DNA of 58,392 bases from Patescibacteria group bacterium (GTDB lineage Bacteria > Patescibacteriota > Minisyncoccia > UBA6257 > UBA9933), in NCBI GenBank assembly GCA_038065035.1, contig JBBTRV010000006.1, forward strand, positions 1-58,392. The letters run 5' to 3'. Numbering within the stretch: position 1 is the first letter of the stretch; each line of letters starts with the position of its first letter. Below are positions 1 to 57,261 of this stretch, piece by piece. The notes under the pieces were generated by a model. That model did no database searches. It worked only from the letters and a program-made list of their open reading frames with translations, and had not been told where the DNA came from. The position numbers were made by a program, and so were the translations under genes.

Positions 1-1137
1 GTATTGCTTGTTAAGGATGCAGTATTGCTTGTTGCGGAGGCCGATGCAGGCGAAGAGGTTGGAGGAAGAATGACAAGAATCAGAATATTCAATACTAGAA
101 ACATTAGTAACTACATTTGTTATAAATTTTAAATTATAGCCGCCAAATCCAACATTATTTCCTTCATATACAATTTCCGAATGTACTAGATTATTAGCAT
201 CGTATACATCTTTTAAGTGATGCCCTCTTAAACAATTTTTTGAATCTTCGGAATCAAAAACATAAAAACTATTCTTTATATTTCTTGAATTGGAAATTGC
301 ATCGCCTGTACAATTATTCGCTTTAATAATATTAGCGTATTTATGCAAAGATTTTTTTGCAATTTCAACAAATTGATTTTTTAATTTTGAAAATAAGGCC
401 TCGCTACCAATATCAAATTTCTTAATTTCTTGTTGATATATTTCTTTAGTATATTGCTTATTTTTTATAATATATTCTTTATTTCTTAAATTGCTGGACA
501 TAAAACAATTCGTACAATTAGCGGAATCAAATAAAAACTGAGAATCAATACAATTGCGCGATTCTATTAATTCTGTTGATTTATAACCTTTATCAACATC
601 TATACATTCATAACAAAGCTCACTATTTGTAAGATGTAAACAGTCAATGCAATTTATTGATTTATCAACTGCTCTTGAATACATAATATCTTCCGAGTCC
701 AATGCGGAAATGGAAAGATATATATTTTTAGAATTCCAACTATTATTTGCATAGTCAGAATTTTGATTATTTGTGCCATAAAAATTAATCCTAGGAATTT
801 TCCTTTGTAATTCAAAAAATTGTTGAAAAAACGGCTTTGAAAAATTATAATCAACCCCGTAATTTATGGCGTCCCAACCATCAGAATACCAGCATTTCTG
901 ACAATAAGAAATAAATCCACTATCTGGTGCGCACATACTCACCACAGATAAACCGCATAAACCGCATTTATTTTTATACAATGCCCTTTCGTTTCTATTG
1001 GCAAATCTCCTTTGAAGACGGCAATCAAAACACCAAGTCGGCGGAGGAACTTTTATTTTGTCATAAAAAGTAAAATCTTCAGGTTCTATTTGAAAATTCT
1101 GATGGCAATTTTGGCAATTGTAAATTTTGGAATGCAT
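1..1137 (-). CDS. Cys-rich zinc-ribbon repeat protein, paralog A (3' end runs off window)
   Basis: Absent from ORF track because there is no stop in the window. ATG at 1137..1135, open in frame to base 1 (379 codons). Translates MHSKIYNCQNCHQNFQIEPEDFTFYDKIKVPPPTWCFDCR... and ends ...NLFACIGLRNKQYCILNKQY. Shares the N-terminal motif and GLRNKQY block with the ORFs at 1693, 54804 and 57262. Confidence 0.8.
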   Translation of the reverse strand, partial: MHSKIYNCQNCHQNFQIEPEDFTFYDKIKVPPPTWCFDCRLQRRFANRNERALYKNKCGLCGLSVVSMCAPDSGFISYCQKCWYSDGWDAINYGVDYNFSKPFFQQFFELQRKIPRINFYGTNNQNSDYANNSWNSKNIYLSISALDSEDIMYSRAVDKSINCIDCLHLTNSELCYECIDVDKGYKSTELIESRNCIDSQFLFDSANCTNCFMSSNLRNKEYIIKNKQYTKEIYQQEIKKFDIGSEALFSKLKNQFVEIAKKSLHKYANIIKANNCTGDAISNSRNIKNSFYVFDSEDSKNCLRGHHLKDVYDANNLVHSEIVYEGNNVGFGGYNLKFITNVVTNVSSIEYSDSCHSSSNLFACIGLRNKQYCILNKQY

Positions 1138-1141
1138 ATTT

Positions 1142-1426
1142 TTACTTGAATAATCTTTTTAATTTAAGATAAAAATTTTCTCTAATTTGTATTAAGTGGA
1201 CTATAATTATTTTATTTTTGTTATCAAAAGTATAAGCCAAACGATAATCTTTGCCGCCAACTTTAAAATGAAAAGAATAGAGAAAATTCAACGAACCAGA
1301 GAGTTTTTCTCCTAGATAGGGATTAGATTTTAATTTTTGGACTGATTCCACTGAAGCAATTCTTACATTCTTCGGCAATTTTTTAGCTTCTTTCTTAGCA
1401 GACGGAGTAATTAAAATCCGATACAT
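1142..1426 (-). CDS. RelE/ParE-family type II toxin
   Basis: 94 aa, basic. Shows the typical RelE/ParE pattern (MYRILITPSAKKEAKKLPKN ... YRLAYTFD...IIIVHLIQIRENFY). Sits 20 nt downstream of a small ORF. Confidence 0.75.
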   Translation of the reverse strand: MYRILITPSAKKEAKKLPKNVRIASVESVQKLKSNPYLGEKLSGSLNFLYSFHFKVGGKDYRLAYTFDNKNKIIIVHLIQIRENFYLKLKRLFK

Positions 1427-1446
1427 TAAATATTAATTGAAAAAAA

Positions 1447-1659
1447 TCAGATAATTTTTTCAATTGGCTCAAATTTTTTACTATCAGCCTCTTTAAAGCT
1501 TTTTGCAAGAAGGTTAATTGTTTTTTTGTCTAAAAAAATTTCTAAGGTTTCTAAGTCGGCGGGAGACAATAATCGGCTTAATGTTTCTAATTTAATAACG
1601 GCGTTTCTCGCCTCTTCAAATGCTTTAATATTTGTTTTTGTTACCATGGCTGTATTCAT
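1447..1659 (-). CDS. putative antitoxin of the RelE-like toxin
   Basis: 70-aa ORF immediately upstream of the toxin on the same strand. Assigned by position only; family not recognised. Confidence 0.5.
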   Translation of the reverse strand: MNTAMVTKTNIKAFEEARNAVIKLETLSRLLSPADLETLEIFLDKKTINLLAKSFKEADSKKFEPIEKII

Positions 1660-1692
1660 ATCATTTTAATTATAATTACAAAAATAAAAAAA

Positions 1693-3498
1693 TCAAATAA
1701 TTTCAGCCTGATAACACTTTTCGCAGTAGACTATCTCTGGACGTTCTGGCGAATAGGTAGTCTCAAATTCATTGGGACAATGGTCTTGGTTATGAAAATG
1801 ATTAATAGTGTTTTGGTAGATGTTTGTATTGTTTGGGTTTTTGCCTTCTATTCCCTGGCATTGGCATTGCCTTTTCCATAGTTTAAGAGGATTGCGCTGT
1901 TTTAGTCGTTGATAGTGGCGGCAGTTGGGGCATAGCCTGGGAAGAGGAAGGTTCATTTTTCTGTAGAAATCCAGTTCTGGTTGGATGATTTTGAAAGCTT
2001 GAGTGCATTGTTCGTTGCATCCGCCTGCTGGCGGATGGCTATTATGCTGGCATTCTATTGTTTCGTTAGTTATTGAATCATTGACGTCTTTGATGTGGTC
2101 AGGGAGATCTTCTGATTTGAGGGTTATTTGAATGTTGCGTTCTTCTGAGTCTTTCCAGACGTAGCCTTTGTTTATGGCTTGTTCTTTGGTTAAGAGAAAA
2201 GATTCCTCCGCCATAGTTTCATTGTAGCAAAAAGATGATAATTCTAATGGGAAAAATTCTCCATACTTATAAATACTGCCTTGTTTATCTGTATAGGGCA
2301 TATTATTCATATGCTGAATTATCATTGGCACTAGTTTTTCATATTCTTCTTTGGTGTATTGCTTGTTGAAGATGCAGTATTGCTTGTTGCGGAGGCCGAA
2401 ACAACCAAATAAATCAGAAGAGTTTTTGCAGTCAAAAGAATATTGGACATTTCTTCCTTCAACGATATTTTTAGAAAATAAAATCTTATATCCAATCACT
2501 ATACACGATTCATAGCAAAGCTGAGATTCTTCTCCGGTATCTATCATATCATAGCTATCCTTAGTAGCGGTTGCGATAATAATATTTTTGCAATTTTCAA
2601 TTGTTGATTTTAAAGAATCTATTTCAAAACAATTATGGCAGTTTTTAGCATTAGTAATATTATTGCCGGTAGTATTGATTGCATTATAAATAACTGCATA
2701 GCGTCTGGGAAAATCCATTTTAAATTGTTGAAATTTTTGAAATATCTCTTGAACCGTTTTAAAACTGCCCAAAAAATATTCTTCTGTTTTTTTCTTGTAT
2801 TCTTCTTTGGAATACGGCTTATTAAAAATATAATATTGCTTATTTCTCAAACCAACGCATCCGAAACAATTGCTGCAATTTTTGCAGTCATAAAGAAAAG
2901 ATGAATCTATGCATTCCACTGCGTATTGAGAAAATTTTACATTATAGCAATGGCTGCAATTTATGCATTCATAGCAAAACTCTGAATCAATAAGAAAAAA
3001 ATAATCAACGGCATCCTTGACGTTTCTGGTATAATGGCCGTACATGCAATTTTCTGCGTTAAAGCCAGTTGTATAATAACAATTTCTAGACCACGCCACT
3101 AAAGGACAATATAAACAATTTACCGACTCAATATTATGCAAATTAGATTTTGGAAAAACATCCGAAATTTCTTTTAATTGCTGAAAAAATGACTTTGAAA
3201 AATCGTATTCTCTGCCATATGTCATTGGATCCCATTTATCAGACCACCAGATTTTATAATCATACACAGGAAAAGAAGTTTCCGGCGGAAAAAGAGCGAT
3301 AATATCATCCCCGCTCCAACTGTCTTTTCTTTTATAAAGCTTTCTTTCATTAATAAATATCATCTTTCTTATAAATCTGCACCCTGGGCACCAAGTCGGT
3401 GCCGGAACTTTTGTTTTAGCGTAAAATTCAAAGTCTTCAGGTTTTATCTTAAAATTTTGTTTACAATTTTGACAAACGATTATTTCAATATTATTCAT
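1693..3498 (-). CDS. Cys-rich zinc-ribbon repeat protein, paralog B (full length, 601 aa)
   Basis: N-terminal CQNCKQNFKIKPEDFEFYAKTKVPAPTWCPGCR. Two Cys-rich blocks, each ending in GLRNKQY(Y/C)IFNK.Y.KEEY. C-terminal FKIIQPELDFYRKMNLPLPRLCPNCR repeats the N-terminal motif. About 60 Cys and no signal peptide. Confidence 0.85.
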   Translation of the reverse strand: MNNIEIIVCQNCKQNFKIKPEDFEFYAKTKVPAPTWCPGCRFIRKMIFINERKLYKRKDSWSGDDIIALFPPETSFPVYDYKIWWSDKWDPMTYGREYDFSKSFFQQLKEISDVFPKSNLHNIESVNCLYCPLVAWSRNCYYTTGFNAENCMYGHYTRNVKDAVDYFFLIDSEFCYECINCSHCYNVKFSQYAVECIDSSFLYDCKNCSNCFGCVGLRNKQYYIFNKPYSKEEYKKKTEEYFLGSFKTVQEIFQKFQQFKMDFPRRYAVIYNAINTTGNNITNAKNCHNCFEIDSLKSTIENCKNIIIATATKDSYDMIDTGEESQLCYESCIVIGYKILFSKNIVEGRNVQYSFDCKNSSDLFGCFGLRNKQYCIFNKQYTKEEYEKLVPMIIQHMNNMPYTDKQGSIYKYGEFFPLELSSFCYNETMAEESFLLTKEQAINKGYVWKDSEERNIQITLKSEDLPDHIKDVNDSITNETIECQHNSHPPAGGCNEQCTQAFKIIQPELDFYRKMNLPLPRLCPNCRHYQRLKQRNPLKLWKRQCQCQGIEGKNPNNTNIYQNTINHFHNQDHCPNEFETTYSPERPEIVYCEKCYQAEII

Positions 3499-3526
3499 AA
3501 TTTCCCTAAATCACCATTTCTTATAT

Positions 3527-3949
3527 TTATTTTATGGTAATCAATATTGCTCCCGCGGCCATCAGAATCGCTCCCAGTCCGGTTTTCCAGCCGAATGTTT
3601 CTCCCAAAAATAAAGCGGCTAAAATAATAACGAAAACAATACTCAGTCTGTCAATCGCCGCCACCCTTGAAGCCAAACCATATTTCAAAGCGAAAAAATA
3701 AAAAAGCCATGACAAAGCGCCGGCAACGCCGGACAAAACAATTAAAAGCCAGTCCCGGGAGCTGAAAGAATTAATTGAAAATCCCTGAAATTTTTTCAGA
3801 AAAAAACTTACCAAAACCAAGAACCCAGACATAATAAGCGCCCGCACCGTTGTCGCCAAGGTGGAATCAACATCTTTCAATCCCAGCTTGGCAAAAATCG
3901 CCACCAGAGCCGCCGTAATTGCCGATAAAAAAGCGTAAATCAACCACAT
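3527..3949 (-). CDS. EamA-like (DMT superfamily) small membrane transporter
   Basis: 140 aa with 4-5 hydrophobic helices and an EamA-type N-terminus (MWLIYAFLSAITAALVAIFAKLGLK). Confidence 0.7.
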   Translation of the reverse strand: MWLIYAFLSAITAALVAIFAKLGLKDVDSTLATTVRALIMSGFLVLVSFFLKKFQGFSINSFSSRDWLLIVLSGVAGALSWLFYFFALKYGLASRVAAIDRLSIVFVIILAALFLGETFGWKTGLGAILMAAGAILITIK

Positions 3950-4027
3950 AAACTTTATAAAATCATTGTTAATTTCTGCCTCTATTATATAATCAATACT
4001 ATCAAATAAAAAATAATTATCAATTTT

Positions 4028-4912
4028 ATGGAAATTTTGCTTTTAATAGACGCCCATGCTTTAATCCATCGATGCTTTCACGCGCTACCGCCTTTCAAAA
4101 ACAAAGAAGGTAAGCCGACCGGCGCGCTTTATGGTTTGTCCAGCATTTTAATAAAAATCCTCCATCCGGATAAAAAAAACGGCGCCGACGGCATCAACGG
4201 CCAAATTCCGGAATATATTGTTGCATTTTTTGACCGGCCGGAACCGACTTTTAGAAAACAAATTTACGACGGTTATAAAGCGCAAAGGCCGAAAGCCCCC
4301 GACGAACTGGTTTCTCAAATAATCGCCAGCCACCAGCTGTTTGAAGCTTTTAATATAAAAACTTTTGAAATTCCTGGGTTTGAAGGCGATGACTTAATCG
4401 GCACAGCTGTAGAAAAATTCAAAAACTATCCTGAATTGAAAATCATAATCTTAACCGGCGACTTAGATGCCCTGCAATTAATAGAAAACGAAAGAATAAT
4501 GGTTGAAACAATAAAAAAAGGCATCAGCGAAACAATAATTTATAACGAAGAAGAAGTAAAAAACCGCTTCGGAATTTTGCCAAGCCAAATTGCCGATTAC
4601 AAAGGATTAGTTGGTGATGTTTCAGACAACATCAAAGGCGTGCCGGGAATCGGACCGAAAACAGCGGCCGTTATTTTACAAAAATATAAAACTATTGAAA
4701 ACTTTTTTCAAAAAGGCCGAGAAGAAAAAAATTACGAGAAAATCATTGAATTTAAAGACCAATCAACAACTTCAAAATATTTGGCAGAGATAAGGAAAGA
4801 CGCTCCATTAGACATAAATATTCAAGATTTAAAATACGAAGGATTGCCGAAAGAAAAATTAATCAAACACTTTGAAACCTTAGGTTTTCAAAGCTTGATA
4901 AAAAGATTATGA
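4028..4912 (+). CDS. 5'-3' exonuclease / flap endonuclease (stand-alone Pol I N-terminal domain)
   Basis: LLIDAHALIHRCFHALP, GFEGDDLIG, and the H3TH motif GVPGIGPKTA. Confidence 0.85.
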   Translation: MEILLLIDAHALIHRCFHALPPFKNKEGKPTGALYGLSSILIKILHPDKKNGADGINGQIPEYIVAFFDRPEPTFRKQIYDGYKAQRPKAPDELVSQIIASHQLFEAFNIKTFEIPGFEGDDLIGTAVEKFKNYPELKIIILTGDLDALQLIENERIMVETIKKGISETIIYNEEEVKNRFGILPSQIADYKGLVGDVSDNIKGVPGIGPKTAAVILQKYKTIENFFQKGREEKNYEKIIEFKDQSTTSKYLAEIRKDAPLDINIQDLKYEGLPKEKLIKHFETLGFQSLIKRL

Positions 4913-5338
4913 TGCCGGCATTATAATAATATGCCTTTCTCCGCCCTCGCCAGCGCTTTCAGTTTTAATATCTGGGCGAGATGATAATTCCACGTGCACC
5001 AGCCGGCGCTCATAAGCATTCATCGGCGGTAACGCCACTTTTGTTTTTTCCGCCATGGCCTTTCTGGCCGCTGCCCGGCCAAGTTCCACAATTAAATCTT
5101 CCCGTTTTTTGCGGTAATTATTGACATCGACAACCACGGCTTCGACATTATTTTTTTTAGCAATTAATTTTATAACATGATCAAGATTGCTGACTATTGA
5201 TTGCAGCATGTTTTCAGAAATTGAATCATCGTTTATAAAAATGGAAAATCGGGAATTGCCTTCGTCGTAATTTACGGAAAAATCAGCGAAACTAAACAAC
5301 TCAATCAATTTTTTAATTTTTTCCTGTAATTGGCTCAT
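4907..5338 (-). CDS. jag: Jag/KhpB KH-R3H RNA-binding protein
   Basis: C-terminal R3H motif MNAYERRLVHVELS...TESAGEGGERHIII. Lies directly downstream of yidC with a 4-nt overlap. Confidence 0.8.
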   Translation of the reverse strand: MSQLQEKIKKLIELFSFADFSVNYDEGNSRFSIFINDDSISENMLQSIVSNLDHVIKLIAKKNNVEAVVVDVNNYRKKREDLIVELGRAAARKAMAEKTKVALPPMNAYERRLVHVELSSRPDIKTESAGEGGERHIIIMPAS

Positions 5339-6084
5339 ATTTTGTGATGCAGCTTTTTATCTATTTCAATTAATTTTTCATCGCTCACTTGCAACCGCTT
5401 ATTAATGACTACTTGTTGAATAACCGAAAAAACCGAAGTTGTCAACCAATAAAGCCCAAGAGCAGAAGGCAGATAAGACAAAAACAAAACCGTCATTATC
5501 GGACCCATATAAACCATCTGCTTGCCCATCATTTCCATCGGCGTTAAATCTTTTTTAGGCGCAGTGTTTTTCGGCAAAGACAATCTGCCCTGAAAATACT
5601 GCGCGACTGCCGCCAAAGCGACAATAAAAAAATTTCTACTACTTAAATCAACTAATCCCAAAAAAATATGATTAACGGCTTCTGGCGCGACAACAAAAGA
5701 ATATAAAAATTTCAAAGATTCTTCACTAATGCCTTTCCAAAAAACCTGATAAAGGCCGATAATCACCGGCAATTGGATTAATAACAAAAGAAACGGAGAA
5801 AGCGGGTTCACTTTATGCTCGCGGTAAAGACTAAGCATCGCCGCCAGTTTTTTCTGCTGGTCATCTTTATGCTGAGCCTCAATTTCCTTCATCTTCGGCG
5901 CCAGGCACTGAATAATCGCCTGATCTTTAGCGCCTTTATAAAAAATCGGCAATAATACTACCCTGATTAAAACCGTTAATATAATTATAGCAACGCCTAA
6001 ATCCGCGCCCGGCAGATACTCATACAAAAGAACCAGGGCGTTAAAAATCGGACGGTAAAAAATTTCATTAAATAAAGCAACCAT
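5335..6084 (-). CDS. yidC: membrane protein insertase YidC (short form)
   Basis: 249 aa and multi-TM, with a YidC/Oxa1 pattern (LPIFYKGAKDQA...MKEIEAQHKDDQQK...LPVIIGLY). Conserved rnpA-yidC-jag synteny. Confidence 0.85.
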   Translation of the reverse strand: MVALFNEIFYRPIFNALVLLYEYLPGADLGVAIIILTVLIRVVLLPIFYKGAKDQAIIQCLAPKMKEIEAQHKDDQQKKLAAMLSLYREHKVNPLSPFLLLLIQLPVIIGLYQVFWKGISEESLKFLYSFVVAPEAVNHIFLGLVDLSSRNFFIVALAAVAQYFQGRLSLPKNTAPKKDLTPMEMMGKQMVYMGPIMTVLFLSYLPSALGLYWLTTSVFSVIQQVVINKRLQVSDEKLIEIDKKLHHKI

Positions 6085-6094
6085 AATAAAATAA

Positions 6095-6424
6095 TTAGTA
6101 ATTAGTAATTAGTAATTTGGCAAGTTCTTTTTCTATTTCTTTTTCTTTTAATTCAGCGGTTTTTGGCGAAACGATTACTAAAACATCTTTACCTTTAATT
6201 TCGTGCAATTTTCCCAATCTGATAAAATTAAAAATTGTTCTTTTGATTTTATTGCGCTGAACAGCTGATTTGCTCACCTTCTTGCTGATTACAACCCCAA
6301 ACCGGCTAAATGATAAATTATTATCAGATATCTTAATAATAAAAAAATCGCTTTTGCGAGTTGTTATTTTTTTTCTTTGCTTCAGCCAATTTTGAATTGG
6401 AAGCCGAAATTTTTTAGCTAACAT
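6095..6424 (-). CDS. rnpA: RNase P protein component
   Basis: Internal Met of the 171-aa track ORF gives MLAKKFRLPI...RFGVVISKKVSKSAVQRNKIKR. The upstream part of the track ORF is the shadow of rpmH in another frame. Confidence 0.8.
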   Translation of the reverse strand: MLAKKFRLPIQNWLKQRKKITTRKSDFFIIKISDNNLSFSRFGVVISKKVSKSAVQRNKIKRTIFNFIRLGKLHEIKGKDVLVIVSPKTAELKEKEIEKELAKLLITNY

Positions 6425-6441
6425 TAACTCAAAATAACTAA

Positions 6442-6576
6442 TTAAACAGTTATTTTCTTTCTTCCTTTTCTCCTTCTTCTTTGCAAAACGTTTCTGCCTC
6501 CCGGCGTCCGGCTGCGCTTTAAAAATCCGTGACTTCTTTTCCTTTTTCTCTTTTTCGGCTGGTATGTTAACGACAC
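6442..6576 (-). CDS. rpmH: 50S ribosomal protein L34
   Basis: Not in ORF track (44 aa, GTG start). Hand translation: (M)[43 protein letters not shown], a classic L34 signature, upstream of rnpA. Confidence 0.8.
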
Positions 6577-6713
6577 AATAAAAGCATAGCAAATTTATAG
6601 AGAAAAACAAGGATGTTGCGCTTATCCACAGCCTTAGTATTGACTAAAATTATAAAGTATTGTATATTAAGATTAGATATTTAAAATAAATTAAAATGAA
6701 AGGGGTGAACGAA

Positions 6714-7196
6714 ATGAATAAGAAATTACAGATAGTAAGTGGAAAAAAAATAATCATCATATTTATTGTATATGTAATTATTATGATTATTACAGCTCTT
6801 ATTGTTATCAGTTGTGCTCCAGGAGATAGAATAATCTTTCGGCCGGATGTGTATATTAATTATACGCCACATCCTTACTACAGCTATAATCAGCGCTATG
6901 ACTACGGCACCTACTACCTCTATTTTCCAATTGTAGTGCAAAATACTAGCACTACTAACTTTGTAGAGATAGCGTTGAACGGCAAGCAAATTTTGCCACA
7001 ACGCATTCCACCCGGGAAAACAGAAAACGTAAACGTTCGGGTTGAAATCGGAGAAAGACGCGATGTTATTCTAACCGCGAGTTGTTACACTGCTTCTGAA
7101 AAATTAACAGGCACCGCGTATCGCGAACTATATATTTATATAGGGTCGTATGAGCGACCCGCTGACATTTGGCCAGTTTACTGTCCCAACCCCTAA
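6714..7196 (+). CDS. hypothetical membrane-anchored or lipoprotein-like protein, Tyr-rich
   Basis: SD-like aaagggg lies 8 nt before the ATG at 6714. N-terminal TM ends in ...VISCAPGD (lipobox-like). No recognisable family. Confidence 0.55.
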   Translation: MNKKLQIVSGKKIIIIFIVYVIIMIITALIVISCAPGDRIIFRPDVYINYTPHPYYSYNQRYDYGTYYLYFPIVVQNTSTTNFVEIALNGKQILPQRIPPGKTENVNVRVEIGERRDVILTASCYTASEKLTGTAYRELYIYIGSYERPADIWPVYCPNP

Positions 7197-7236
7197 TCAT
7201 TTTTCGCCGGTTGTGCAATCCACACTGGCGAAATCA

Positions 7237-7276
7237 CCCGCGGCAATTGCCACAAACAATTGTCCGCGGGTTTTTT
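7237..7276 (+). terminator. rho-independent terminator after 6714..7196
   Basis: cccgcgg (7237-7243) pairs with ccgcggg (7264-7270), followed by tttttt. It lies inside the track's N-terminal extension of ruvC. Confidence 0.5.
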
Positions 7277-7313
7277 ATTGCTTTTTACTTTTTTATTTTT
7301 TATATTTTATTTA

Positions 7314-7793
7314 ATGATTATTCTCGGCCTTGACCCGGGCAGCGTTGCCATCGGCTACGGCTTGCTCAAAAAAGAAAAAAAGGAATTAAAACTTTTAAAA
7401 AGCGGCTTATTTAAAATTTCAAGCAAAGACAAAAGCGAACGGCTTTTAGAAATTGAAAAATCTTTCTTGCAACTAATAAAAAACAATAAAATTGACATCA
7501 TTGCCATAGAAAAATTATTTTTTATGAAAAACATGAAGACTGCGCTCGAAGTCGCCCAGTCTCGCGGGGTCTTGACATTGGTCGCCGCAAAACACAAAAT
7601 ATCCCTATTGGAATTTTCGCCGTCGGAAGTTAAAAGCGCTGTCACCGGCTACGGCTTGGCGGATAAGAAAGCCGTGGCAAAAATGGTTGCTAAATTTTTG
7701 AAGATTGATACAATAAAAAAATCAGACGATGAAACAGACGCGATAGCGATAGCATTGACAGCGGCAAACAATTCGATAAATATTAAGATTTAA
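7314..7793 (+). CDS. ruvC: crossover junction endodeoxyribonuclease RuvC
   Basis: MIILGLDPGSVAIGYG... and C-terminal DETDAIAIAL. Start moved to the internal Met because the upstream extension overlaps a terminator. Confidence 0.85.
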   Translation: MIILGLDPGSVAIGYGLLKKEKKELKLLKSGLFKISSKDKSERLLEIEKSFLQLIKNNKIDIIAIEKLFFMKNMKTALEVAQSRGVLTLVAAKHKISLLEFSPSEVKSAVTGYGLADKKAVAKMVAKFLKIDTIKKSDDETDAIAIALTAANNSINIKI

Positions 7794-7839
7794 AAATAGT
7801 TGGATTTAATAAAAGGTCGCTTATTATTTTCTTTTAAAA

Positions 7840-8037
7840 ATGATTATTGCTGATTTAAAAAAATCGTCATTATTAAATTACAGCGATGAAGGCGGTGAAG
7901 CAGATATTGACACATCCTGCGAAGATTGCGGAGCCGAACTTGACAATCAACAGCTATGCCCGAATTGCGATTCAGAAATTGACGCTGCAGAAGAATTAGG
8001 AACAGAAGACGATCCTGATAAAAAAGACGAAGAATAA
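7840..8037 (+). CDS. small acidic zinc-ribbon protein (hypothetical)
   Basis: 65 aa with CEDCG...CPNC and a very acidic tail. Followed by a terminator. Confidence 0.5.
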   Translation: MIIADLKKSSLLNYSDEGGEADIDTSCEDCGAELDNQQLCPNCDSEIDAAEELGTEDDPDKKDEE

Positions 8038-8053
8038 GTTGTTATAAAAATAA

Positions 8054-8086
8054 ACATCCCCAGCTCCGAAAAGGGGTGTTTTTTTT
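8054..8086 (+). terminator. rho-independent terminator
   Basis: acatccc / ggggtgt stem followed by a T7 run. Confidence 0.55.
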
Positions 8087-8124
8087 CAACTATTGAATTA
8101 TAATAAAAACATTAAGAATCTAAA

Positions 8125-10281
8125 ATGGCTAGGAAACATAAATTCATCTGGTTGAAAATAATCGGCGCTTTGATTTTAATTTTTTTCAGCGCCTCGCTTT
8201 TTGTTTTAGCGAAAGTCGCCAAAATAGCCAAGGAATTGCCCGACCCGAAACAATTTGTAGCCAGTCACCAAGTAAGCCAATCAAGTAAAATATACGACAG
8301 AACCGGCGAAATTTTGCTATATGAAATTTATTCAGAAGAAAAAAGAACTATTATTCCTTTTAAAAAAATACCTGATTATGTGAAAAAAGCGACCATTGCT
8401 ATTGAAGATAAAAATTTTTATGAACATCCCGCGCTTGATTGGCGTGCCCTAATAAGAGCTTTTTTAACCAACGTTATTGAAGGAAGAGTGGTGCAGGGCG
8501 GCTCAACCATCACCCAACAATTGGCTAAAAATGCCTTTTTAAACTCGGAAAAAACATATGAAAGAAAAATCAAAGAGTTAATCTTGTCTTATTGGATAGA
8601 AAAAAAATATTCTAAAGACGAAATTCTTGAGCTTTACCTTAATCAAATTCCTTACGGCAATAATACTTACGGCATTGAGGCCGCCTCAAAAACTTATTTC
8701 GGAAAATCTGCCGAAGAATTATCACTGGCTGAATCAGCCCTACTAGCCTCCATCCCTAAAGCGCCGACTTATTATTCGCCATACAGCTCTCATAAAGACG
8801 AATTAATCCAAAGAAAAGATTACACATTAGAACAAATGTTGTCGCTTAGCTTTATTGATAATGAAGAATTTAAAAGAACAAAAGATTATCAATATAAATT
8901 CCAACCTCAAAATATCGGCTCAATCAAAGCTCCTCATTTCGTAATGATGGTTAAGGATTATCTGATTGAAAAATACGGCGAAAATTTTTTGGAAAACGGA
9001 GGGTTAAAAATTATTACCACCCTTAATTGGGACCTCCAACAAACCGCTGAATTAGTTGTTAAGGAAGGAGCGGAACGCAATGAAAATCTCTATAAAGGAA
9101 AAAATGCTGCTTTAGTAGCTCAAGACCCGAAAACCGGCCAAATCTTGACGCTTGTCGGCTCAAGAGATTATTTTGACGTAAAAAACGACGGCAATTTCAA
9201 CGTTGCCAGCCAGGGATTAAGACAACCAGGTTCATCTTTTAAACCCTTCGCTTATTTAACAGCTTTTAAAAAAGGATATTCGCTTAAGACAATTGTTTTC
9301 GATTTGCCAACTGAATTTACGGCCAACAATCCAAATTGTCCGTTGGTGGTTAATTTTTCTAACAAATCAAAAGAATGTTATCATCCTGAAAATTTTGACC
9401 GCCAATTCAGGGGGCCGGTAAATTTAAAAAATGCCCTAGCCCAATCTTTAAATATTCCATCCGTTAAGGTTCTTTATTTAGCTGGAATTGAAGACACGAT
9501 AAAAACGGCCAAAGATATGGGAATAACAACATTAAACGACATTTCACGCTATGGCTTATCTCTTGTTTTGGGAGGTGGTGAAGTAAAATTAATCGATTTA
9601 GTCAACGCTTATGCTGTTTTTTCCCAAGAAGGAATAAGACATAACCAAAAAATTGTTTTAAAAATAGAAGATTTTTCCGGTAAAACAATAGAGGACGCCT
9701 CCGACCAAGCCGTTAAGATAGTTGATTCCCAATATATAAGATTAATTACCGATATTCTTTCAGATGACGAAGCAAGAAAGCCGCTTTATCAAAATAGTTT
9801 TAACTTAACAACTTTTGAAGACCGACAAGTTGCCTTGAAAACCGGAACAAGTAATGACTACATAGACGCATGGACTATTGGTTATACCCCCTATTTAGTT
9901 GTCGGTGTTTGGGCTGGAAATAATAACAATACACCAATGCAAAAACAAGCCGGTAGTATTTTAGCCGCCTTGCCGATTTGGAATTCTTTTATGAGTAAAA
10001 CTTTAAATAATTTTCCAGTTGAGTTTTTTAATGACGCGGAAAAAGAAAATGAAGATATTAATAAAACAATGTTAAATGGAAATTATATAAACAATAATAG
10101 TATTCATAATATACTCTATTATATTGATAAAAATAATCCATTAGGTGAAACTCCATTAAATCCAGAAAATGATTTTCAATTTAAGAATTGGGAAACTCCG
10201 GTTCAAAACTGGATAAAATTAAACTCATTACAACAATTATCTCAATCAACAACCACCATAATTAGCCAACCAACTAATTAA
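8125..10281 (+). CDS. class A penicillin-binding protein (transglycosylase + transpeptidase)
   Basis: GT51 motifs EDKNFYEH and GGSTITQQ. Transpeptidase motifs SSFKP and KTGT. N-terminal TM anchor. Confidence 0.85.
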   Translation: MARKHKFIWLKIIGALILIFFSASLFVLAKVAKIAKELPDPKQFVASHQVSQSSKIYDRTGEILLYEIYSEEKRTIIPFKKIPDYVKKATIAIEDKNFYEHPALDWRALIRAFLTNVIEGRVVQGGSTITQQLAKNAFLNSEKTYERKIKELILSYWIEKKYSKDEILELYLNQIPYGNNTYGIEAASKTYFGKSAEELSLAESALLASIPKAPTYYSPYSSHKDELIQRKDYTLEQMLSLSFIDNEEFKRTKDYQYKFQPQNIGSIKAPHFVMMVKDYLIEKYGENFLENGGLKIITTLNWDLQQTAELVVKEGAERNENLYKGKNAALVAQDPKTGQILTLVGSRDYFDVKNDGNFNVASQGLRQPGSSFKPFAYLTAFKKGYSLKTIVFDLPTEFTANNPNCPLVVNFSNKSKECYHPENFDRQFRGPVNLKNALAQSLNIPSVKVLYLAGIEDTIKTAKDMGITTLNDISRYGLSLVLGGGEVKLIDLVNAYAVFSQEGIRHNQKIVLKIEDFSGKTIEDASDQAVKIVDSQYIRLITDILSDDEARKPLYQNSFNLTTFEDRQVALKTGTSNDYIDAWTIGYTPYLVVGVWAGNNNNTPMQKQAGSILAALPIWNSFMSKTLNNFPVEFFNDAEKENEDINKTMLNGNYINNNSIHNILYYIDKNNPLGETPLNPENDFQFKNWETPVQNWIKLNSLQQLSQSTTTIISQPTN

Positions 10282-10283
10282 TA

Positions 10284-11396
10284 TCAACTTTTTATTGGCA
10301 TTAAAATATAAAAATAAGAAGTGTCTTCTGGTGATTTTATAATTGCCGGCTTATTTGAATTACTAAAACCAAAGAAAATATTTTCAGAAGTTATATTTTT
10401 AATTCCATCTAATAAAAAGCGCCAATTAAAAATAACTTCTATTGGCTCTCCTTTTATTTTTGCGGAGATTAAATACTTATTCACCCCAAAAACATTATTA
10501 CAAGAAGATATTTCTATGTTTTTAAGATTTTCTTTTATGGTTATTTTTATTTCATTAAGCCGGTCTGTGAAGATTCCAACAAGTTTAACGGCGTTGATTA
10601 ATTCATCTTTATTTAAAACAACTTCTGTTTCGTGTGTTTTTGGAATAATTTGCTGATATTCCGGAAATTCACCATTAATTAATCTTGATATTATTTCTGT
10701 ATTTTCGTTTTTAAAAACAATTTGGGTTTGGTCAAAAAATATATTGATTTTTCCACTTTCATTTAATTGTGTTTCTTTAATAACCTCATTAATTGTTTTT
10801 AATGGAATAATAATCTTAAAAGCGTTATCAATATTTGATTTAAAATAATTATTCAAAATAGTCTCTTCAGAAAGCCTGAATGTATCAGTTGAAACAAATT
10901 TTATTACTGAATTTTGATAATCAAATAAAACCCCACTAAGTTCAGGTTTACTATCTTTAGTTGTTGAACTAATAATATTAATAAAAATATCTTTTAATAT
11001 TGAGTTTTGTATTTCAATATAATAATTATTGTTTTTTATTTTTGGAATAATTGGAAAATCTTCTTTTTTAATTCCATTTATTTCAGCTTCATAATTATCA
11101 GTTTTTAATAATATTTTATTATTATTTATTTCAATATTAATCCTTTCATTTTGTAAATTATTAATAATTGAATTAAAAATTCCAAAAGGAATAGTTATTC
11201 CTCCGTTTTCTATTATTTTTCCAGAAATAAAACTAATTACCGCTAATTCAAGATTTGTCGCTGAAAGTTTTATTCTATTATCAAATGATTCAATTAAAAA
11301 ATTTTTTAAAATTGGTAAATCGGTATCATCTTTTGTTATTTGCTCAATAACTCTAAGCCCATCTTTTAAATTTTTTTTTAAAACAACTAATTTCAT
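10284..11396 (-). CDS. dnaN: DNA polymerase III beta sliding clamp
   Basis: 370 aa directly downstream of dnaA, with a three-domain clamp-like pattern (MKLVVLKKNLKDGL...). Confidence 0.85.
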   Translation of the reverse strand: MKLVVLKKNLKDGLRVIEQITKDDTDLPILKNFLIESFDNRIKLSATNLELAVISFISGKIIENGGITIPFGIFNSIINNLQNERINIEINNNKILLKTDNYEAEINGIKKEDFPIIPKIKNNNYYIEIQNSILKDIFINIISSTTKDSKPELSGVLFDYQNSVIKFVSTDTFRLSEETILNNYFKSNIDNAFKIIIPLKTINEVIKETQLNESGKINIFFDQTQIVFKNENTEIISRLINGEFPEYQQIIPKTHETEVVLNKDELINAVKLVGIFTDRLNEIKITIKENLKNIEISSCNNVFGVNKYLISAKIKGEPIEVIFNWRFLLDGIKNITSENIFFGFSNSNKPAIIKSPEDTSYFYILMPIKS

Positions 11397-11530
11397 AATA
11401 TTAATATATATTATTTGTTATTGTAGTAGTGGTTGTGAATATGTTTATTATTTAAAAATAAACAATAAACATATGTATTTATTTTTAAATAACCTGTGGA
11501 AATATAGTTAATTATTATAGGATATTTTTT

Positions 11531-12898
11531 TTAAGCATTTTCATTGATTATTTCTTTTATTAATATTATTTTTTGGTTTAAGTTATTATTTTTATTAATT
11601 TCATTAGCTATTTTTTCATATGAATGGATTGCTGTTGTGTGATCTCTTTTTCCTATTTTATCCCCAATATCCGGGTAAGACATCCCCAATATTTCCCTAA
11701 GTAAAAATATTGTTATTTGTCTTGGTTCAATTAATCTTTTTCTTCTTGAATGGCTTATAATATCATCTGGTATCATTTCAAAAAAATCAGCCACTGTTTT
11801 TATTAATTGACCAGGGGTTATTTTTTTATCAACCTGGTTTATTGTGTTGCTTATTATTTCTTCAATTATTTTCGGCTGAAGATTAATATTCTTCGTTTCT
11901 TTATAAAAAACAATTTTATTTAAAATTCCTTCAATTTCTCTAATATTTCTTTGCACTTTTAAAGCTATAACTTGGCAGATATTATCTGGTAAATCAGCGC
12001 GCATTTGAACCAACTTCGTTTTTATAATAGCTAAGCGAGTTTCAAAATCTGGATAAGTAATATCTGCCGCCATTCCCCCCTCAAAGCGCGAGCGTAATCT
12101 TTCATGAAGTGTTGGAATAGCCGCCGGTGGCCTGTCGGAAGATATTATTATTTGTTTACTATTTTCATGTAGGGCATTAAATGTATGGAAAAATTCCATT
12201 TCACTTGCCTCTTTTCCCCCAATAAATTGAATATCGTCAATAATTAAAACATCTATATTGCGATATTTGTTTTTCATATCTTCCATTCTTTTGTTTCGGA
12301 TTCCGGCAACTACTTCATGAACGAATTTTTCACAATGAACATATTTTACCTTAATTTTATCTTTATAATTATTTTTTATTTCATTGCCAATTGCTTGGAT
12401 AAGGTGTGTTTTTCCAAGCCCCGTTCCGCCATAAATAAAAAATGGATTATATTTAACGCCAACATTTTTTATTACAGCAAGACTAGCGGCGTAAGCCAAT
12501 TCATTTGAAGAGCCGACGATAAAAGAATTAAGGGTGTAGCGCGGATGAAGTCCGGTTTCTTGGTCTATTTTAAATTCTGGAAATGTTAATTGCCTTTCCG
12601 CGGGTTGAGATTGTTGAGAAATATTATTTTGGTTTGCGGCTATTATTTTTGGGCCAACAACTATGTATTCAATTTTTTTTATTGAATTATCGTTATTTTT
12701 AAGAATTTCAAAAATAATTTTATGATATTTATTTTCCACCCATTCTTTGGCAAAATTGTTCGATAAACCGATTATTACTTCACCGGTATCTTTTTTCTCG
12801 CAAAGTTGGCTGTTTTTTAACCAGGTAAGAAAATTTGGGCGGGAAATTTGCAGTTCTATTTCCGATAAAACTGTTTGCCAAAGCTGGTTGGTGTTCAT
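11531..12898 (-). CDS. dnaA: chromosomal replication initiator DnaA
   Basis: Walker A GGTGLGKTHL, box VII RSRF, and a C-terminal HTH (DHTTAIHSYEKI). Confidence 0.95.
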   Translation of the reverse strand: MNTNQLWQTVLSEIELQISRPNFLTWLKNSQLCEKKDTGEVIIGLSNNFAKEWVENKYHKIIFEILKNNDNSIKKIEYIVVGPKIIAANQNNISQQSQPAERQLTFPEFKIDQETGLHPRYTLNSFIVGSSNELAYAASLAVIKNVGVKYNPFFIYGGTGLGKTHLIQAIGNEIKNNYKDKIKVKYVHCEKFVHEVVAGIRNKRMEDMKNKYRNIDVLIIDDIQFIGGKEASEMEFFHTFNALHENSKQIIISSDRPPAAIPTLHERLRSRFEGGMAADITYPDFETRLAIIKTKLVQMRADLPDNICQVIALKVQRNIREIEGILNKIVFYKETKNINLQPKIIEEIISNTINQVDKKITPGQLIKTVADFFEMIPDDIISHSRRKRLIEPRQITIFLLREILGMSYPDIGDKIGKRDHTTAIHSYEKIANEINKNNNLNQKIILIKEIINENA

Positions 12899-29650: not shown

Positions 29651-29704
29651 AGCCCGCTAAGAAGTTTTTACTTTTAAGCGGGCTGTTTTATTTTAAAAAT
29701 AAAT
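29651..29704 (+). terminator. terminator of the SPFH operon
   Basis: agcccgct ... agcgggct stem followed by gttttatttt. Confidence 0.5.
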
Positions 29705-30110
29705 TGCTAATCGCCTGCATAAAATCTTCGAAGTCGCTTAAATCATTTTTTGCGTATTCCAATATATTTTTGTCGTTGATTTCCCAATAGCGATGTATTA
29801 GTTTATTTCTGAATTTTACCATATTTCTTAATTTCAGCGATAAATCTGGTTGCAAAGCTTTTTCATTTTCCAATACTTCAAAACATTCACCAAAAGCGGA
29901 AACCGCTTTATGAAATTTTTTTGCGGCTAAATGAACGTAAACGCCGCCTACTGCCTCAATTGCTTGCAGGAGATTATATTTTAAAGCGGCTAAATCTATT
30001 TTATCTGACAAAATTTTTTCATCTCCAAAAGATATTATTTTTTTTATTTCTTCCAATGCCGCGTCAATTTCCGCGAACCTTTGTTGAATTTTTTTCTTGT
30101 CTATATTCAT
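29688..30110 (-). CDS. hepT: HepT (DUF86, HEPN) toxin
   Basis: R-x4-H motif RNKLIHRYWEI. 140 aa, downstream of a nucleotidyltransferase. Confidence 0.8.
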   Translation of the reverse strand: MNIDKKKIQQRFAEIDAALEEIKKIISFGDEKILSDKIDLAALKYNLLQAIEAVGGVYVHLAAKKFHKAVSAFGECFEVLENEKALQPDLSLKLRNMVKFRNKLIHRYWEINDKNILEYAKNDLSDFEDFMQAISNLFLK

Positions 30111-30118
30111 AATATTTT

Positions 30119-30559
30119 TTAGCGAGTAATAAGTTCCTTGAATGATTGATAAGATATATATTCATTAGCTAAAGCGTCAAGTGAAGAATATTCAATAATA
30201 GGGTCAAGAATGTTGTCATCTTTAACAAACAATAATTTGCCTCGGGAAAATACATTATTTTGAAACGATACTGGCGCGAAATTTAAAACTTTAATGTCTA
30301 TTTTATCAAACGAAAAATTTATAAATTTGCCCAATTCCACTGAAAGATTAGTCTCATAGTTGAAAACTTTTTCTTTTTCAATAGCTGGCTTAACTAAAAA
30401 AACCGCCACGTCGATATCGCGAAAAGAGATGTTTTCCGGCTCAAGAAAAGAGCCGAAAATATAGGAAAAGGAAATCTCTTCGCGTTTTTCCAGAAATTGG
30501 CGGATTTTAGTCGTTGTTTCTTCTTTTTCTTGTTTTGTCATCTGATAGAATTCTTTCAT
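30119..30559 (-). CDS. mntA: MntA minimal nucleotidyltransferase antitoxin
   Basis: IFGSFLEPE...RDIDVAVF (GS...DxD). Start is uncertain (Met codons at 30595, 30559 and 30541). Confidence 0.75.
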   Translation of the reverse strand: MKEFYQMTKQEKEETTTKIRQFLEKREEISFSYIFGSFLEPENISFRDIDVAVFLVKPAIEKEKVFNYETNLSVELGKFINFSFDKIDIKVLNFAPVSFQNNVFSRGKLLFVKDDNILDPIIEYSSLDALANEYISYQSFKELITR

Positions 30560-30730
30560 TCTGGTTATTATATTGAAAATTTGATAAAAAAGCAATTAAA
30601 AACAAAAATCCCGCAGTAGAGCTTTCGTTCACTGCGGGACTTCTCCCCGACTTCTTATTTTAAGAATGTCGGGATTTTTTATTTGGTATTTCCTATTATT
30701 AATTATATTTTATATATTATTTGGTTATAA

Positions 30731-50375: not shown

Positions 50376-50403
50376 AAAATTTAAAACCAAATTAACTAAT
50401 TAA

Positions 50404-50826: not shown

Positions 50827-50870
50827 TACATTGATTTTATCAGCAATTGGAGTTAAATTAAATAGATATA

Positions 50871-53003: not shown

Positions 53004-53016
53004 TAATTTATAGCAT

Positions 53017-53649: not shown

Positions 53650-53663
53650 AAAATATTAAATTT

Positions 53664-54803: not shown

Positions 54804-56603
54804 ATGAATCAAGAAATTAAAACTTGCCAAAACTGCAAACAAAATTTTACCATAGAATCAGAAGATTTCGCTTTTTACGACAAAATAAAAGTTCCGCCGC
54901 CGACTTGGTGTTCGGAGTGCCGAATGATTCGCCGCATGAATTGGCGCAATGAAAGAACATTATACAAAAGAAAATGCGATGCACCCGGACATAATGAAGA
55001 AATAATCTCCATTTATCATAAAGATTCGCCGTTTAAGGTTTATGACTATAAATATTGGTGGAGTGATGAATGGGATTCTTTGATATATGGCAAGGATTAT
55101 GATTTTTCACAGCCGTTTTTTGAGCAGTTTAAGGAGTTATTAAGAGAAGTTCCTCATAATAATTTAGTATCGGGGAATAATGTAAATAGCGAATATGTAA
55201 ATTTTCAAGCTAATAGTAAGGATTGCTATTTAGCAACGGGGGGTCAATTTAATGAACAGGTTATATATAGCAACCATGTTGTAAATTCAAAAGACTCCAC
55301 CGATCTTTATTTTGTTTTTAAGATAGAACTTGGTTATGACGATGTAATTTGCCAAAATTCATATCGTTTATTTTATAGTCAGAATTGCGATAATTGTATT
55401 GATTCTTATTTTTTATATGATTGCCGAAATTGTCAGAATTGCTTTAGTTGTGTTGGATTAAGAAATAAGCAATATTACATATTTAATAAACCTTATTCAA
55501 AAGAAGAATATGAAAAGAAATTAAGAGAGTTTAATTTAGGTAATTTTAATCAAATTAAAAAACAAAAAGAATTATTTAATGAATTTAAATTAAGATATCC
55601 TTATAAATTTATAAATTCTGTTAGGGGAGAAAATATTTCTGGGGATAATATAAGCGACGCTAAAAATTGTAAATACGCATTTGATATACTTCCGGGAGGC
55701 AGTGAAAATTGTAAATTTCTTTGGTGGAGCGGTAATGTTATAAAAGATGTTTATGATGGAAATGTTGGCATGAATGTTGAATCATCATATGAAAATATAT
55801 CTGTTATAAATAACGTTTCAAGAGTATTGTTTTCAGTTTCTATTTGGACTGGTTATGATATCCAATATTCTGAGAATTGCCATAATTCCTCCAATCTCTT
55901 CGCCTGCGTCGGCCTCCGCAACAAGCAATACTGCATCCTCAACAAGCAATACACCAAAGAAGAATACGAAAAACTAGTGCCCCAAATCATAGAGTATATG
56001 AATAATATGCCCTATACAGATAAACAAGGCAGAATCTACAAATACGGAGAATTCTTCCCGCCAGAACTGTCTCCCTTCAGCTATAACGAAACAATCGCCC
56101 AAGAATACTTCCCCTTAACCAAACAACAAGCCATAGAACAAGGTTACAGCTGGAAAGACCCGGAACAAAGAAATATCAATATAACCCTCAAATCAGAAGA
56201 CCTTCCTGACAATATCAAAGACGTCAAAGATGATATAATCAACCAAATCATAGAATGCCAGCATCAGAACAATCCGCCAGCAGGCGGATGCAATGAACAA
56301 TGCACCGAAGCCTTCAAAATCATCCAACCAGAACTGGATTTCTACAAAAAAATGAATCTTCCTTTGCCCAGACTATGCCCTAACTGCAGGCATTACCAGA
56401 GACTAAAACAACGCAATCCACTTAAACTATGGAAAAGGCAATGCCAATGCGCTGGCAATAAGTCAGAAAACGAAGTTTATCAAAACACTATTGCTCATAC
56501 GCATGGAGAAAAGCATTGTGAAAATACCTTTGAAACTACTTATGCTCCTGAACGTCCGGAAATTGTCTATTGTGAAAAGTGTTACCAGCAGGAAGTGATG
56601 TAG
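54804..56603 (+). CDS. Cys-rich zinc-ribbon repeat protein, paralog C (full length)
   Basis: ATG at 54804 (MNQEIKTCQNCKQNFTIESEDFAFYDKIKVPPPTWCSECR) preferred over the TTG at 54780. The C-terminal about 235 aa are highly similar to paralog B. Confidence 0.85.
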   Translation: MNQEIKTCQNCKQNFTIESEDFAFYDKIKVPPPTWCSECRMIRRMNWRNERTLYKRKCDAPGHNEEIISIYHKDSPFKVYDYKYWWSDEWDSLIYGKDYDFSQPFFEQFKELLREVPHNNLVSGNNVNSEYVNFQANSKDCYLATGGQFNEQVIYSNHVVNSKDSTDLYFVFKIELGYDDVICQNSYRLFYSQNCDNCIDSYFLYDCRNCQNCFSCVGLRNKQYYIFNKPYSKEEYEKKLREFNLGNFNQIKKQKELFNEFKLRYPYKFINSVRGENISGDNISDAKNCKYAFDILPGGSENCKFLWWSGNVIKDVYDGNVGMNVESSYENISVINNVSRVLFSVSIWTGYDIQYSENCHNSSNLFACVGLRNKQYCILNKQYTKEEYEKLVPQIIEYMNNMPYTDKQGRIYKYGEFFPPELSPFSYNETIAQEYFPLTKQQAIEQGYSWKDPEQRNINITLKSEDLPDNIKDVKDDIINQIIECQHQNNPPAGGCNEQCTEAFKIIQPELDFYKKMNLPLPRLCPNCRHYQRLKQRNPLKLWKRQCQCAGNKSENEVYQNTIAHTHGEKHCENTFETTYAPERPEIVYCEKCYQQEVM

Positions 56604-56644
56604 TTTGACTTTGAAATTGAAAATATAGTAATATTCTATATATT

Positions 56645-56824
56645 ATGACAACAACAGCCTTAAAAGAAAAAGTGTTTCAATTACAAGCTGAATTAGAATT
56701 TATTAAAAAAGCTTTTGAAAAAGAGCCTGATTTCGATATCGACGAAAAAAACTGGAAAAAAATTAAAGCAGATTCAAAAAAAACAAGAGCGAAATTATAT
56801 CAAATTCGCTATGGCAAAAAATAG
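56645..56824 (+). CDS. putative antitoxin of the PIN toxin (59 aa)
   Basis: Below the track cutoff. MTTTALKEKVFQLQAELEFIKKAFEKEPDFDIDEKNWKKIKADSKKTRAKLYQIRYGKK. Overlaps the PIN start by 14 nt. Confidence 0.5.
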   Translation: MTTTALKEKVFQLQAELEFIKKAFEKEPDFDIDEKNWKKIKADSKKTRAKLYQIRYGKK

Positions 56825-57254
56825 GGTCTTTTTAGACAGCAGCACTTTAATAGCCGCTATCCTTTCTCAATCAGGCGGCTCTTTTTATATTTTGAACAGA
56901 TTTAGGAATGATTTTGAATTTCAGATTAATAATTATATTTTTGATGAATTAATGGCAATCGCGGATAAAAAGTTTTCAATAGATAAGGATTTCAAAAATA
57001 AATTATTTCTTCTTATCGGCATGGTTCCTATAAAAATTTTAAATGATTCATCAAAATCTAAAACTGATATTGCAGCAAAGTTTATTAACAAAAATGACGC
57101 GCCGATTTTAGCTTCGGCTTTAATACATAGTAATTATCTTTTGACTTTAGATAATGATTTTTTAAAAGAATCGGCAATAGAATTCGCTCAAAAGAAAAAT
57201 TTGATTATTTTAAAACCGAAAGATTTTATTGAAAAATTTAGAAATAAAATTTAA
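56811..57254 (+). CDS. PIN-domain toxin (VapC-like)
   Basis: MAKNRVFLDSSTLIAA...NDAPILASAL...LTLDNDF (acidic PIN residues). Start moved to the internal Met in frame with the track ORF. Confidence 0.75.
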   Translation: MAKNRVFLDSSTLIAAILSQSGGSFYILNRFRNDFEFQINNYIFDELMAIADKKFSIDKDFKNKLFLLIGMVPIKILNDSSKSKTDIAAKFINKNDAPILASALIHSNYLLTLDNDFLKESAIEFAQKKNLIILKPKDFIEKFRNKI

Positions 57255-57261
57255 TGCTTTC

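Follow-up and report, generated by a model that had tools for sequence, protein, structure and literature searches.

Toxin–antitoxin pairs of unrelated families in the junctions between paralogs of a large, uncharacterised cysteine-rich family of Parcubacteria

The 58,392-nucleotide (nt) stretch of DNA analysed here (the window; contig JBBTRV010000006.1 of assembly GCA_038065035.1, from a Patescibacteria group bacterium of the Minisyncoccia) carries at each end two genes of a Parcubacteria-specific cysteine-rich protein family, which we call FAM, with a toxin–antitoxin (TA) pair between them. The left array consists of paralogs B and A with a ParE-like pair, and the right array of paralogs C and D with a PIN-type pair. 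On balance, we think that autonomous and mutually unrelated TA operons lodge in FAM-FAM junctions, as selfish lodgers rather than as dedicated partners of the proteins on either side. The TA modules themselves are of known kinds, and their convergence on the slot between paralogs of a giant, uncharacterised family varies a known theme, that of TA pairs within recombinogenic arrays.

The left pair is predicted from its sequence to be a ParE-like toxin with a conserved cognate antitoxin, and toxicity and neutralisation are likewise predictions. The 94-residue open reading frame (ORF) matches the Pfam families PF15781 (ParE-like_toxin; 66.9 bits, cut-off 28) and PF05016 (29.5 bits, cut-off 23) as well as phrog_1213, a RelE-like toxin, and the 70-residue ORF is 78% identical to a 75-residue ORF directly upstream of a homolog of the toxin in Jorgensenbacteria (locus L080). 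That homolog (L080:844-1026) is the nearest genomic relative of the left toxin and is apparently cut to 60 residues, compared with 94 in the window, with its antitoxin intact, which suggests that the L080 copy is a decaying TA pair. The right pair appears to be a PIN/VapC-like toxin with its own conserved cognate antitoxin, again with predicted activity. Its PIN ORF is a marginal pass for PF01850 (26.4 bits, cut-off 23.6) and falls below the cut-off of TIGR00305; the acidic residues D9, E46, D97 and D115/D117 fall within FLDSS, DE, NDAPIL and LDNDF, motifs that the homolog in locus L081 shares. This nearest relative of the PIN ORF is 53% identical and has a homologous 59-residue ORF upstream, with the identical 14-nt overlap. 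An earlier reading of the window made without database searches (the sequence-only reading) had described the left cassette as four minus-strand genes in the order B, antitoxin, toxin, A with gaps of 33, 20 and 4 nt, and the ORF positions confirm it (Table 1). They equally bear out its claim that the right end mirrors this architecture with an unrelated PIN-type pair: C, the 59-residue ORF, PIN and D follow one another on the plus strand, with 41 nt between C and the antitoxin, the 14-nt overlap between antitoxin and PIN, and 7 nt between PIN and D. The TA assignments made there hold as well, given the PF15781 and PF01850 scores and the conservation of the two small ORFs as partners in L080 and L081.

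The window is a complete contig, and both A and D are cut at its ends because a 360-nt exact run shared by the two genes (nt 1083-1442 of A, nt 1077-1436 of D) begins precisely there and broke the assembly. The two ends of the window are the same 55-mer in inverted orientation, 100% complementary; 55 is a common assembler k-mer size, and the 55-mer is the start of the 360-nt repeat. Two longer assemblies of the same genome read through these points, and we rejected the terminal inverted repeat as the end of a mobile element on these three grounds. One of them (L084, 99.99% identical to window positions 1-12000) has the gene order EamA, B, antitoxin, ParE-like toxin, A (599 residues), uvrB, a 196-residue gene and uvrA, and its gene upstream of uvrB is identical to the N-terminus of A in the window. 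The other (L083, 100% identical to positions 50001-58392) has ftsK, a RodZ-like gene, recA, C, antitoxin, PIN, D (593 residues) and RNase H-like genes. Each array therefore consists of exactly two FAM genes with the TA pair in their junction. The 360-nt exact inverted repeat is also a warning that the mirrored, truncated look of the window ends is an assembly effect. The repeat, which begins in the terminal 55-mers and continues into L084:5311-7110 and L083:12459-14240, brackets a segment of about 56 kb with dnaA and dnaN, which homologous recombination across it could invert.

Both TA pairs seem, from their occurrence elsewhere, to be genuine two-gene modules that are autonomous and not dedicated to FAM. 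Neither nearest relative, in L080 or L081, has a FAM gene within 4 kb. The nearest ortholog of paralog B is 80% identical and keeps the upstream synteny exonuclease-EamA-B; uvrB-uvrA comes immediately after it, and both a TA pair and a paralog A are absent. We compared the single FAM gene of a relative, L082, as a possible B/A deletion chimera; A and B are nearly identical in their C-terminal tails. The FAM copies that flank TA pairs do not form a clade, the nearest relative of 11 of the 14 being a copy that does not flank one. A promoter-like site lies just 5' of each antitoxin, a weak hint as regional counts of such sites are not above shuffled controls, and the cassette gaps contain no terminator-like site in a terminator/promoter scan with counts not above the same controls.

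Other genomes have the paralog-TA-paralog arrangement too. We surveyed the neighbourhoods of 221 FAM copies in 79 loci from GTDB species genomes and, with the window left out of this and the following counts, found TA-like pairs between or beside FAM genes in 9 of 79 other loci. Six lie between FAM genes: HicB-HicA in L011 and Gp49/HigB with HTH_3 in L033 (both strong calls), a HicB-like ORF with a small ORF in L020 and L024 (moderate), and ParE/RelE-like pairs in L028 and L021 (weak). Three lie at an array edge: HicB-HicA in L010 and Phd-MazF in L054 (strong), and a ParE-like pair in L074 (weak). At least five unrelated toxin families occupy the slot (ParE, PIN, HicAB, HigB/Gp49 and MazF). 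The recognisable families among the other 34 small-ORF pairs of the same loci are ribosomal or housekeeping, with at most one TA-like pair. Counted by junction, TA-like pairs occur at 6/114 FAM-FAM junctions, 3/174 FAM-edge junctions and at most 1/475 others. The Fisher odds ratio is about 7-26, depending on the strictness of the TA calls, with p = 0.0003-0.001 for all calls, 0.006-0.013 for strong and moderate calls and 0.07 for strong calls alone. These figures are suggestive of a TA enrichment at FAM junctions. The frequency itself is low: about 4-5% of FAM-FAM junctions hold a TA pair and about 95% do not. Other genes in the array gaps include further conflict-type ones, namely RhuM and a Cas2-like PaaX_M domain.

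We propose that unrelated TA families share this one slot because the junction lets DNA in and addiction penalises its deletion. The FAM paralogs are mosaics, with central regions that are 26-48% identical at the amino-acid level and C-terminal parts of about 230 residues that are 75-100% identical; in the C-terminal part, identity at third codon positions and the GC content of those positions are raised. The identical stretches that the genes share, 360 nt between A and D (in different arrays and inverted), 200 nt between A and B and 141 nt between C and D, point to recent gene conversion. Each FAM-FAM junction therefore has the most conserved, gene-converting DNA of the family on both sides: the upstream copy contributes its 3' C-terminal domain and the downstream copy its 5' Zn-ribbon. 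These flanks may serve as homology arms, through which homologous recombination could bring in or swap the DNA between two copies. If the flanking direct repeats recombined with each other, the resident TA pair would be lost and the paralogs fused, a deletion that an addictive TA pair would penalise. Only 4-7 nt separate the toxin stop codon from the downstream paralog, so transcripts of the TA operon probably extend into that gene.

What the FAM proteins do is a wider question. Paralogs A-D share 40-59% amino-acid identity in pairwise comparison and contain 28-36 cysteines each (4.7-6.0%); we saw no transmembrane-like segment and no evident signal peptide in any of them. The sequence-only reading could not place this family of about 600 residues, and our searches of Pfam, NCBIfam, PADLOC, PDB profiles and Foldseek gave it no identity either. 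Scans of A-D with Pfam and NCBIfam gave no match, nor did the PADLOC-DB v2 models at E <= 0.1, and the sole PHROGs match (21.6 bits) is to a family of unknown function. A sequence-profile search of the PDB with FAM returned 0 matches, and among PDB structures Foldseek detected nothing of similar fold (best E = 1.2). A structure search of BFVD matched the Zn-ribbon alone, to phage 'putative zinc-ribbon domain' proteins, and no FAM relative was found among the viral contigs of IMG/VR; a phage origin, raised by one 'putative phage protein' annotation, was rejected on the latter ground. Searches of the literature on Parcubacteria cysteine-rich or zinc-ribbon proteins, gene-family expansion and PF13451 returned nothing on FAM. 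The family is among the largest uncharacterised ones we have seen. More than 7400 homologs were scored in one homology search. Over their full length they are typically 50-60% identical, almost all are annotated as 'hypothetical', and those with a named source come nearly all from Patescibacteria/Parcubacteria (Ryan-, Lipton-, Giovannoni-, Jorgensen-, Nomura- and Staskawicz-bacteria, Minisyncoccia). An exhaustive search of representatives gave 3744 clusters at 50% identity with E <= 1e-3, 1491 of them with E <= 1e-30. Parcubacteria genomes are very small, and because they devote so much DNA to one family, we suggest that FAM matters to the biology of these organisms.

The AlphaFold2 model of FAM (mean predicted local distance difference test, pLDDT, 78.5; predicted template modelling score, pTM, 0.77) is confident in the N- and C-terminal parts and less so in the central region. 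From the N-terminus on, the protein consists of a Zn-ribbon, a pair of homologous Cys-rich modules, the conserved C-terminal domain, a further Zn-ribbon and a Cys/His tail. The N-terminal ribbon (C9, C12, C37 and C40) is homologous to the C-terminal ribbon around C498, C523 and C526 (hhalign E = 4e-21), and homology also links the two central modules, which span roughly residues 120-245 and 262-392 (E = 4e-38) and both terminate in GLRNK.Y.I.NK.Y.KEEY. In 174 full-length copies the conserved parts are the ribbons, the module ends and the C-terminal domain, and the module bodies are variable. Such variable modules between homogenised, conserved ends are suggestive of a constant handle that carries a diversified body for binding or recognition.

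The usual state of FAM is a co-directional tandem array without a TA pair. The 221 copies are co-directional within every one of the 79 loci, and 103 of the 142 neighbouring FAM pairs are at most 150 nt apart (47 of the 103 overlapping), with gaps of more than 300 nt holding other genes in 30. The first ~37 kb of contig JALLOO010000001 hold at least 18 copies. The commonest companion is a P-loop ATPase of about 490 residues (c1), which matches TrwB_AAD_bind, TraG-D_C and DUF87/HerA; it is represented by 43 ORFs in 26 of the 79 loci, mostly one or two genes from FAM. A transmembrane-like segment is missing from 32 of the 43, the likeness to TrwB is weak, and the PADLOC mad8 model is matched at 1e-11 to 1e-16. 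CutA1 occurs in 12 loci. Arrays interleaved with c1-type ATPases, often two or three per locus, and with CutA1 were seen in L008, L009, L014, L018, L026, L065, L086, L087 and 18 further loci, and a recurrent order is SecD-SecF-(sigma70_r4+HARE-HTH)-ATPase-173-residue transmembrane protein-ATPase-FAM(n)-ATPase-CutA1. The c1-type ATPase at L007:7827-9461 ends in a zinc ribbon, CxxC...VPFKP...RPIYCKxC, that resembles the FAM ribbons. Independent gene calls give the neighbourhood of the nearest homolog of C as c1, FAM, CutA1, YggT, c1, with no TA pair. Clustering of the ORFs of the window placed neither c1 nor CutA1 within it.

We regard the VirD4/HerA-like ATPase and CutA1 as the best contextual lead to the function of FAM, and FAM with its link to the ATPase as a more interesting question than the TA pairs. 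Tentatively, and as a minority possibility, FAM could be the variable component of an undescribed Parcubacteria-specific system with CutA1 and mostly transmembrane-less, orphan VirD4/HerA-like ATPases. In one version of such a system, an exapted coupling-protein ATPase would handle arrays of diversified substrates, effectors or sensors, the gene-converted C-terminal domain would be their common handle, and TA pairs would join the arrays to stabilise them or as partners in abortive infection. A published survey counted 5713 VirD4-like type IV coupling protein homologs in 2918 Patescibacteria genomes, 148 of them near virB4, and raised exaptation as a possibility (PMC12102498). The FAM-ATPase link is a lead on why Patescibacteria carry thousands of VirD4-like homologs away from type IV secretion systems.

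Several observations weigh against taking the TA pairs for lodgers. The apparent enrichment depends on crude ORF calls and on short proteins being recognised by Pfam, the 79 loci are phylogenetically non-independent, and with the strongest calls alone p is the 0.07 given above. In this genome two of two arrays hold a TA pair, more than the rate of about 5% elsewhere would lead one to expect, and every TA pair is co-directional with FAM and tight against it, as a co-regulated unit would be. The difference at L082 fits gain as well as loss, and no deletion or exchange event was directly observed. Part of this is what one would expect of the single functional unit put forward in the sequence-only reading, possibly a TA-coupled defence or addiction module with a Zn-binding sensor or effector. 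We take this to mean that the Cys-rich paralogs would have that role and would control the TA pair or make use of it. Such a dedicated four-gene module would account for the identical architecture of both arrays, for the spacing of 4-41 nt in gaps free of terminator-like sites, for the location of 11/11 TA pairs on the FAM strand and for the recurrence in other genomes. We nevertheless consider it very improbable, as a TA pair is missing from some 95% of FAM-FAM junctions, unrelated toxin superfamilies share the slot, the pairs are found without FAM elsewhere, the nearest FAM orthologs are without TA, the flanking copies are not a clade, PADLOC offers no match and, as a weaker point, each pair has its own promoter-like site. 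In the end, the TA identities, the uncharacterised family and the recurrence of the arrangement stand from that reading, and the functional unit of TA pair and flanking paralogs is not supported. Chance adjacency, in which TA modules insert anywhere and two happen to fall between paralogs, also seems to us unlikely. TA modules are mobile and common (PMC7167474), the strongest calls do not carry the enrichment below p = 0.07, and the window was chosen for its pattern, an ascertainment bias; against this stand the contrast of 6/114 FAM-FAM junctions and three array edges with at most 1/475 other junctions, and the fact that the only two arrays seen in this genome both carry a TA pair at the matching position.

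A further explanation is that FAM arrays are conflict islands, concerned with defence or host interaction, in which the variable FAM proteins act as sensors, binders or effectors together with the VirD4/HerA-like ATPase. TA pairs would then gather there as defence genes cluster, possibly adding abortive infection, and would not be obligate partners. The hypervariable central modules between conserved ends, the size of the paralog arrays (one contig holds 18 copies or more in ~37 kb), the presence of the HerA/VirD4-like ATPase in 26/79 loci with its PADLOC mad8 match, the apparent TA enrichment at arrays and the RhuM and Cas2-like PaaX_M genes in their gaps are all consistent with this. However, the PADLOC models have no match to FAM, no relative of it was found in IMG/VR, the neighbours of the arrays are mostly housekeeping genes (recA, uvrB, tRNA synthetases, SecDF), the window has neither a VirD4-like ATPase nor CutA1, and the ATPase matches amount to generic P-loop similarity. 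We therefore hold conflict islands to be a possible but rather doubtful explanation of the TA pairs, and are similarly hesitant about a conflict or host-interaction role for FAM itself. Lodging of autonomous TA operons in a recombination-prone slot is the reading that we prefer.

The features of the two cassettes are collected in Table 1. The window is otherwise ordinary chromosome, with dnaA, dnaN, gyrA, ftsK, recA and yidC, and with uvrB and uvrA nearby.

Table 1. Features of the left and right cassettes of the window (FAM, cysteine-rich family; TA roles are predictions)
Feature	Position	Strand	Remarks
Terminal 55-mer	1..55	.	inverted copy at 58338-58392; assembly break
FAM paralog A, N-terminal 379 codons	1137..1	-	open at window end; full gene 599 aa in L084
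ParE/RelE-superfamily toxin (predicted)	1426..1142	-	94 aa; PF15781, PF05016, phrog_1213
Cognate antitoxin (predicted)	1659..1447	-	70 aa; no Pfam family match
Promoter-like site TTGATT-16-TATAAT	1669..1696	-	just 5' of antitoxin; weak evidence
200-nt tract in B exactly identical to A	1837..2036	-	A nt 1457-1656 = B nt 1463-1662; apparent gene-conversion tract
FAM paralog B	3498..1693	-	601 aa, complete
FAM paralog C	54804..56603	+	599 aa, complete; ATG start confirmed by independent gene calls (100% identical P0007)
141-nt tract at C 3' end exactly identical to D	56463..56603	+	exact-run comparison
Cognate antitoxin of PIN toxin (predicted)	56645..56824	+	59 aa; no family match
PIN-domain (VapC-like) toxin (predicted)	56811..57254	+	147 aa; PF01850
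FAM paralog D, N-terminal 377 codons	57262..58392	+	cut by contig end; full gene 593 aa in L083

Several other features of the window deserve mention. A third TA-like pair, a HepT-like RNase of 140 residues with an MNT-type nucleotidyltransferase of 158 residues (29688-30595, minus strand), adjoins no FAM gene. The intergenic region 45794-46454 contains a cluster of repeats built on a GTTTCACGTTTTACA-like motif, some of them direct (97 nt at 96% identity; 54 nt) and others inverted with 78-nt arms, and Rfam gave no match for this cluster. Phosphoglucomutase is split at 49452-50826 (minus strand) into an ORF of 140 residues for domain I and one of 312 residues for domains II-IV, and the identical split is called in the independent assembly L083. 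Directly upstream of tRNA-Ile and tRNA-Val lies a 123-residue ORF (43425-43796, plus strand) that by eye is a putative homing-endonuclease fragment.

Among known systems, the FAM ribbons come closest to PF13451 (zf_Tbcl) and the phage zinc-ribbon proteins. They superpose on the phage models with a root-mean-square deviation of 0.5-0.7 Å over 42-44 columns at 27-31% identity, with the pattern CxxC ... F.I...D..FY.K..VP.P..CP.CR. Two FAM members have a precomputed PF13451 match, B and C have none at E <= 0.1, and the likeness spans less than 10% of the protein. The comparison with VirD4/TrwB coupling-protein systems draws on the FAM arrays elsewhere that are interleaved with VirD4/TrwB/HerA-like ATPases, and substrates of type IV secretion coupling proteins carry C-terminal recognition domains, much as FAM combines a variable body with a conserved C-terminal domain. 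Unlike such a substrate system, the ATPases here mostly lack a transmembrane segment and none is in the window, and we do not count FAM as a member.

The TA pairs themselves are easier to place. The left pair resembles type II modules of the ParDE/RelE kind in that the toxin scores well above cut-off, a small gene for the antitoxin precedes it by 20 nt on the same strand and the pair is conserved elsewhere; it differs in that the antitoxin matches no ParD, Phd or RelB family and the module sits between paralogs of an unrelated family. The right pair shares with VapBC modules the PIN match, the conserved acidic motifs and the 59-residue upstream partner, whose 14-nt overlap is kept in L081, but its PIN score is barely over the cut-off and its antitoxin has no AbrB, MazE, ribbon-helix-helix or Phd match. 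For the arrangement as a whole, the closest parallel is the Vibrio superintegron, in which TA cassettes stabilise a repeated array against deletion (PMC7167474). In both cases unrelated TA families are scattered through a recombining array, and the deletion penalty that we propose is alike. The repeats here differ in being paralogous 1.8-kb genes with gene-conversion tracts rather than attC-bounded cassettes, and stabilisation of the FAM arrays is suggested by analogy; junctions of 4-41 nt leave no room for attC, and no search aimed at intI or attC was made. The FAM arrays look like an integron-free counterpart of TA-stabilised cassette arrays, in which the recombinogenic repeats are the paralogous genes.

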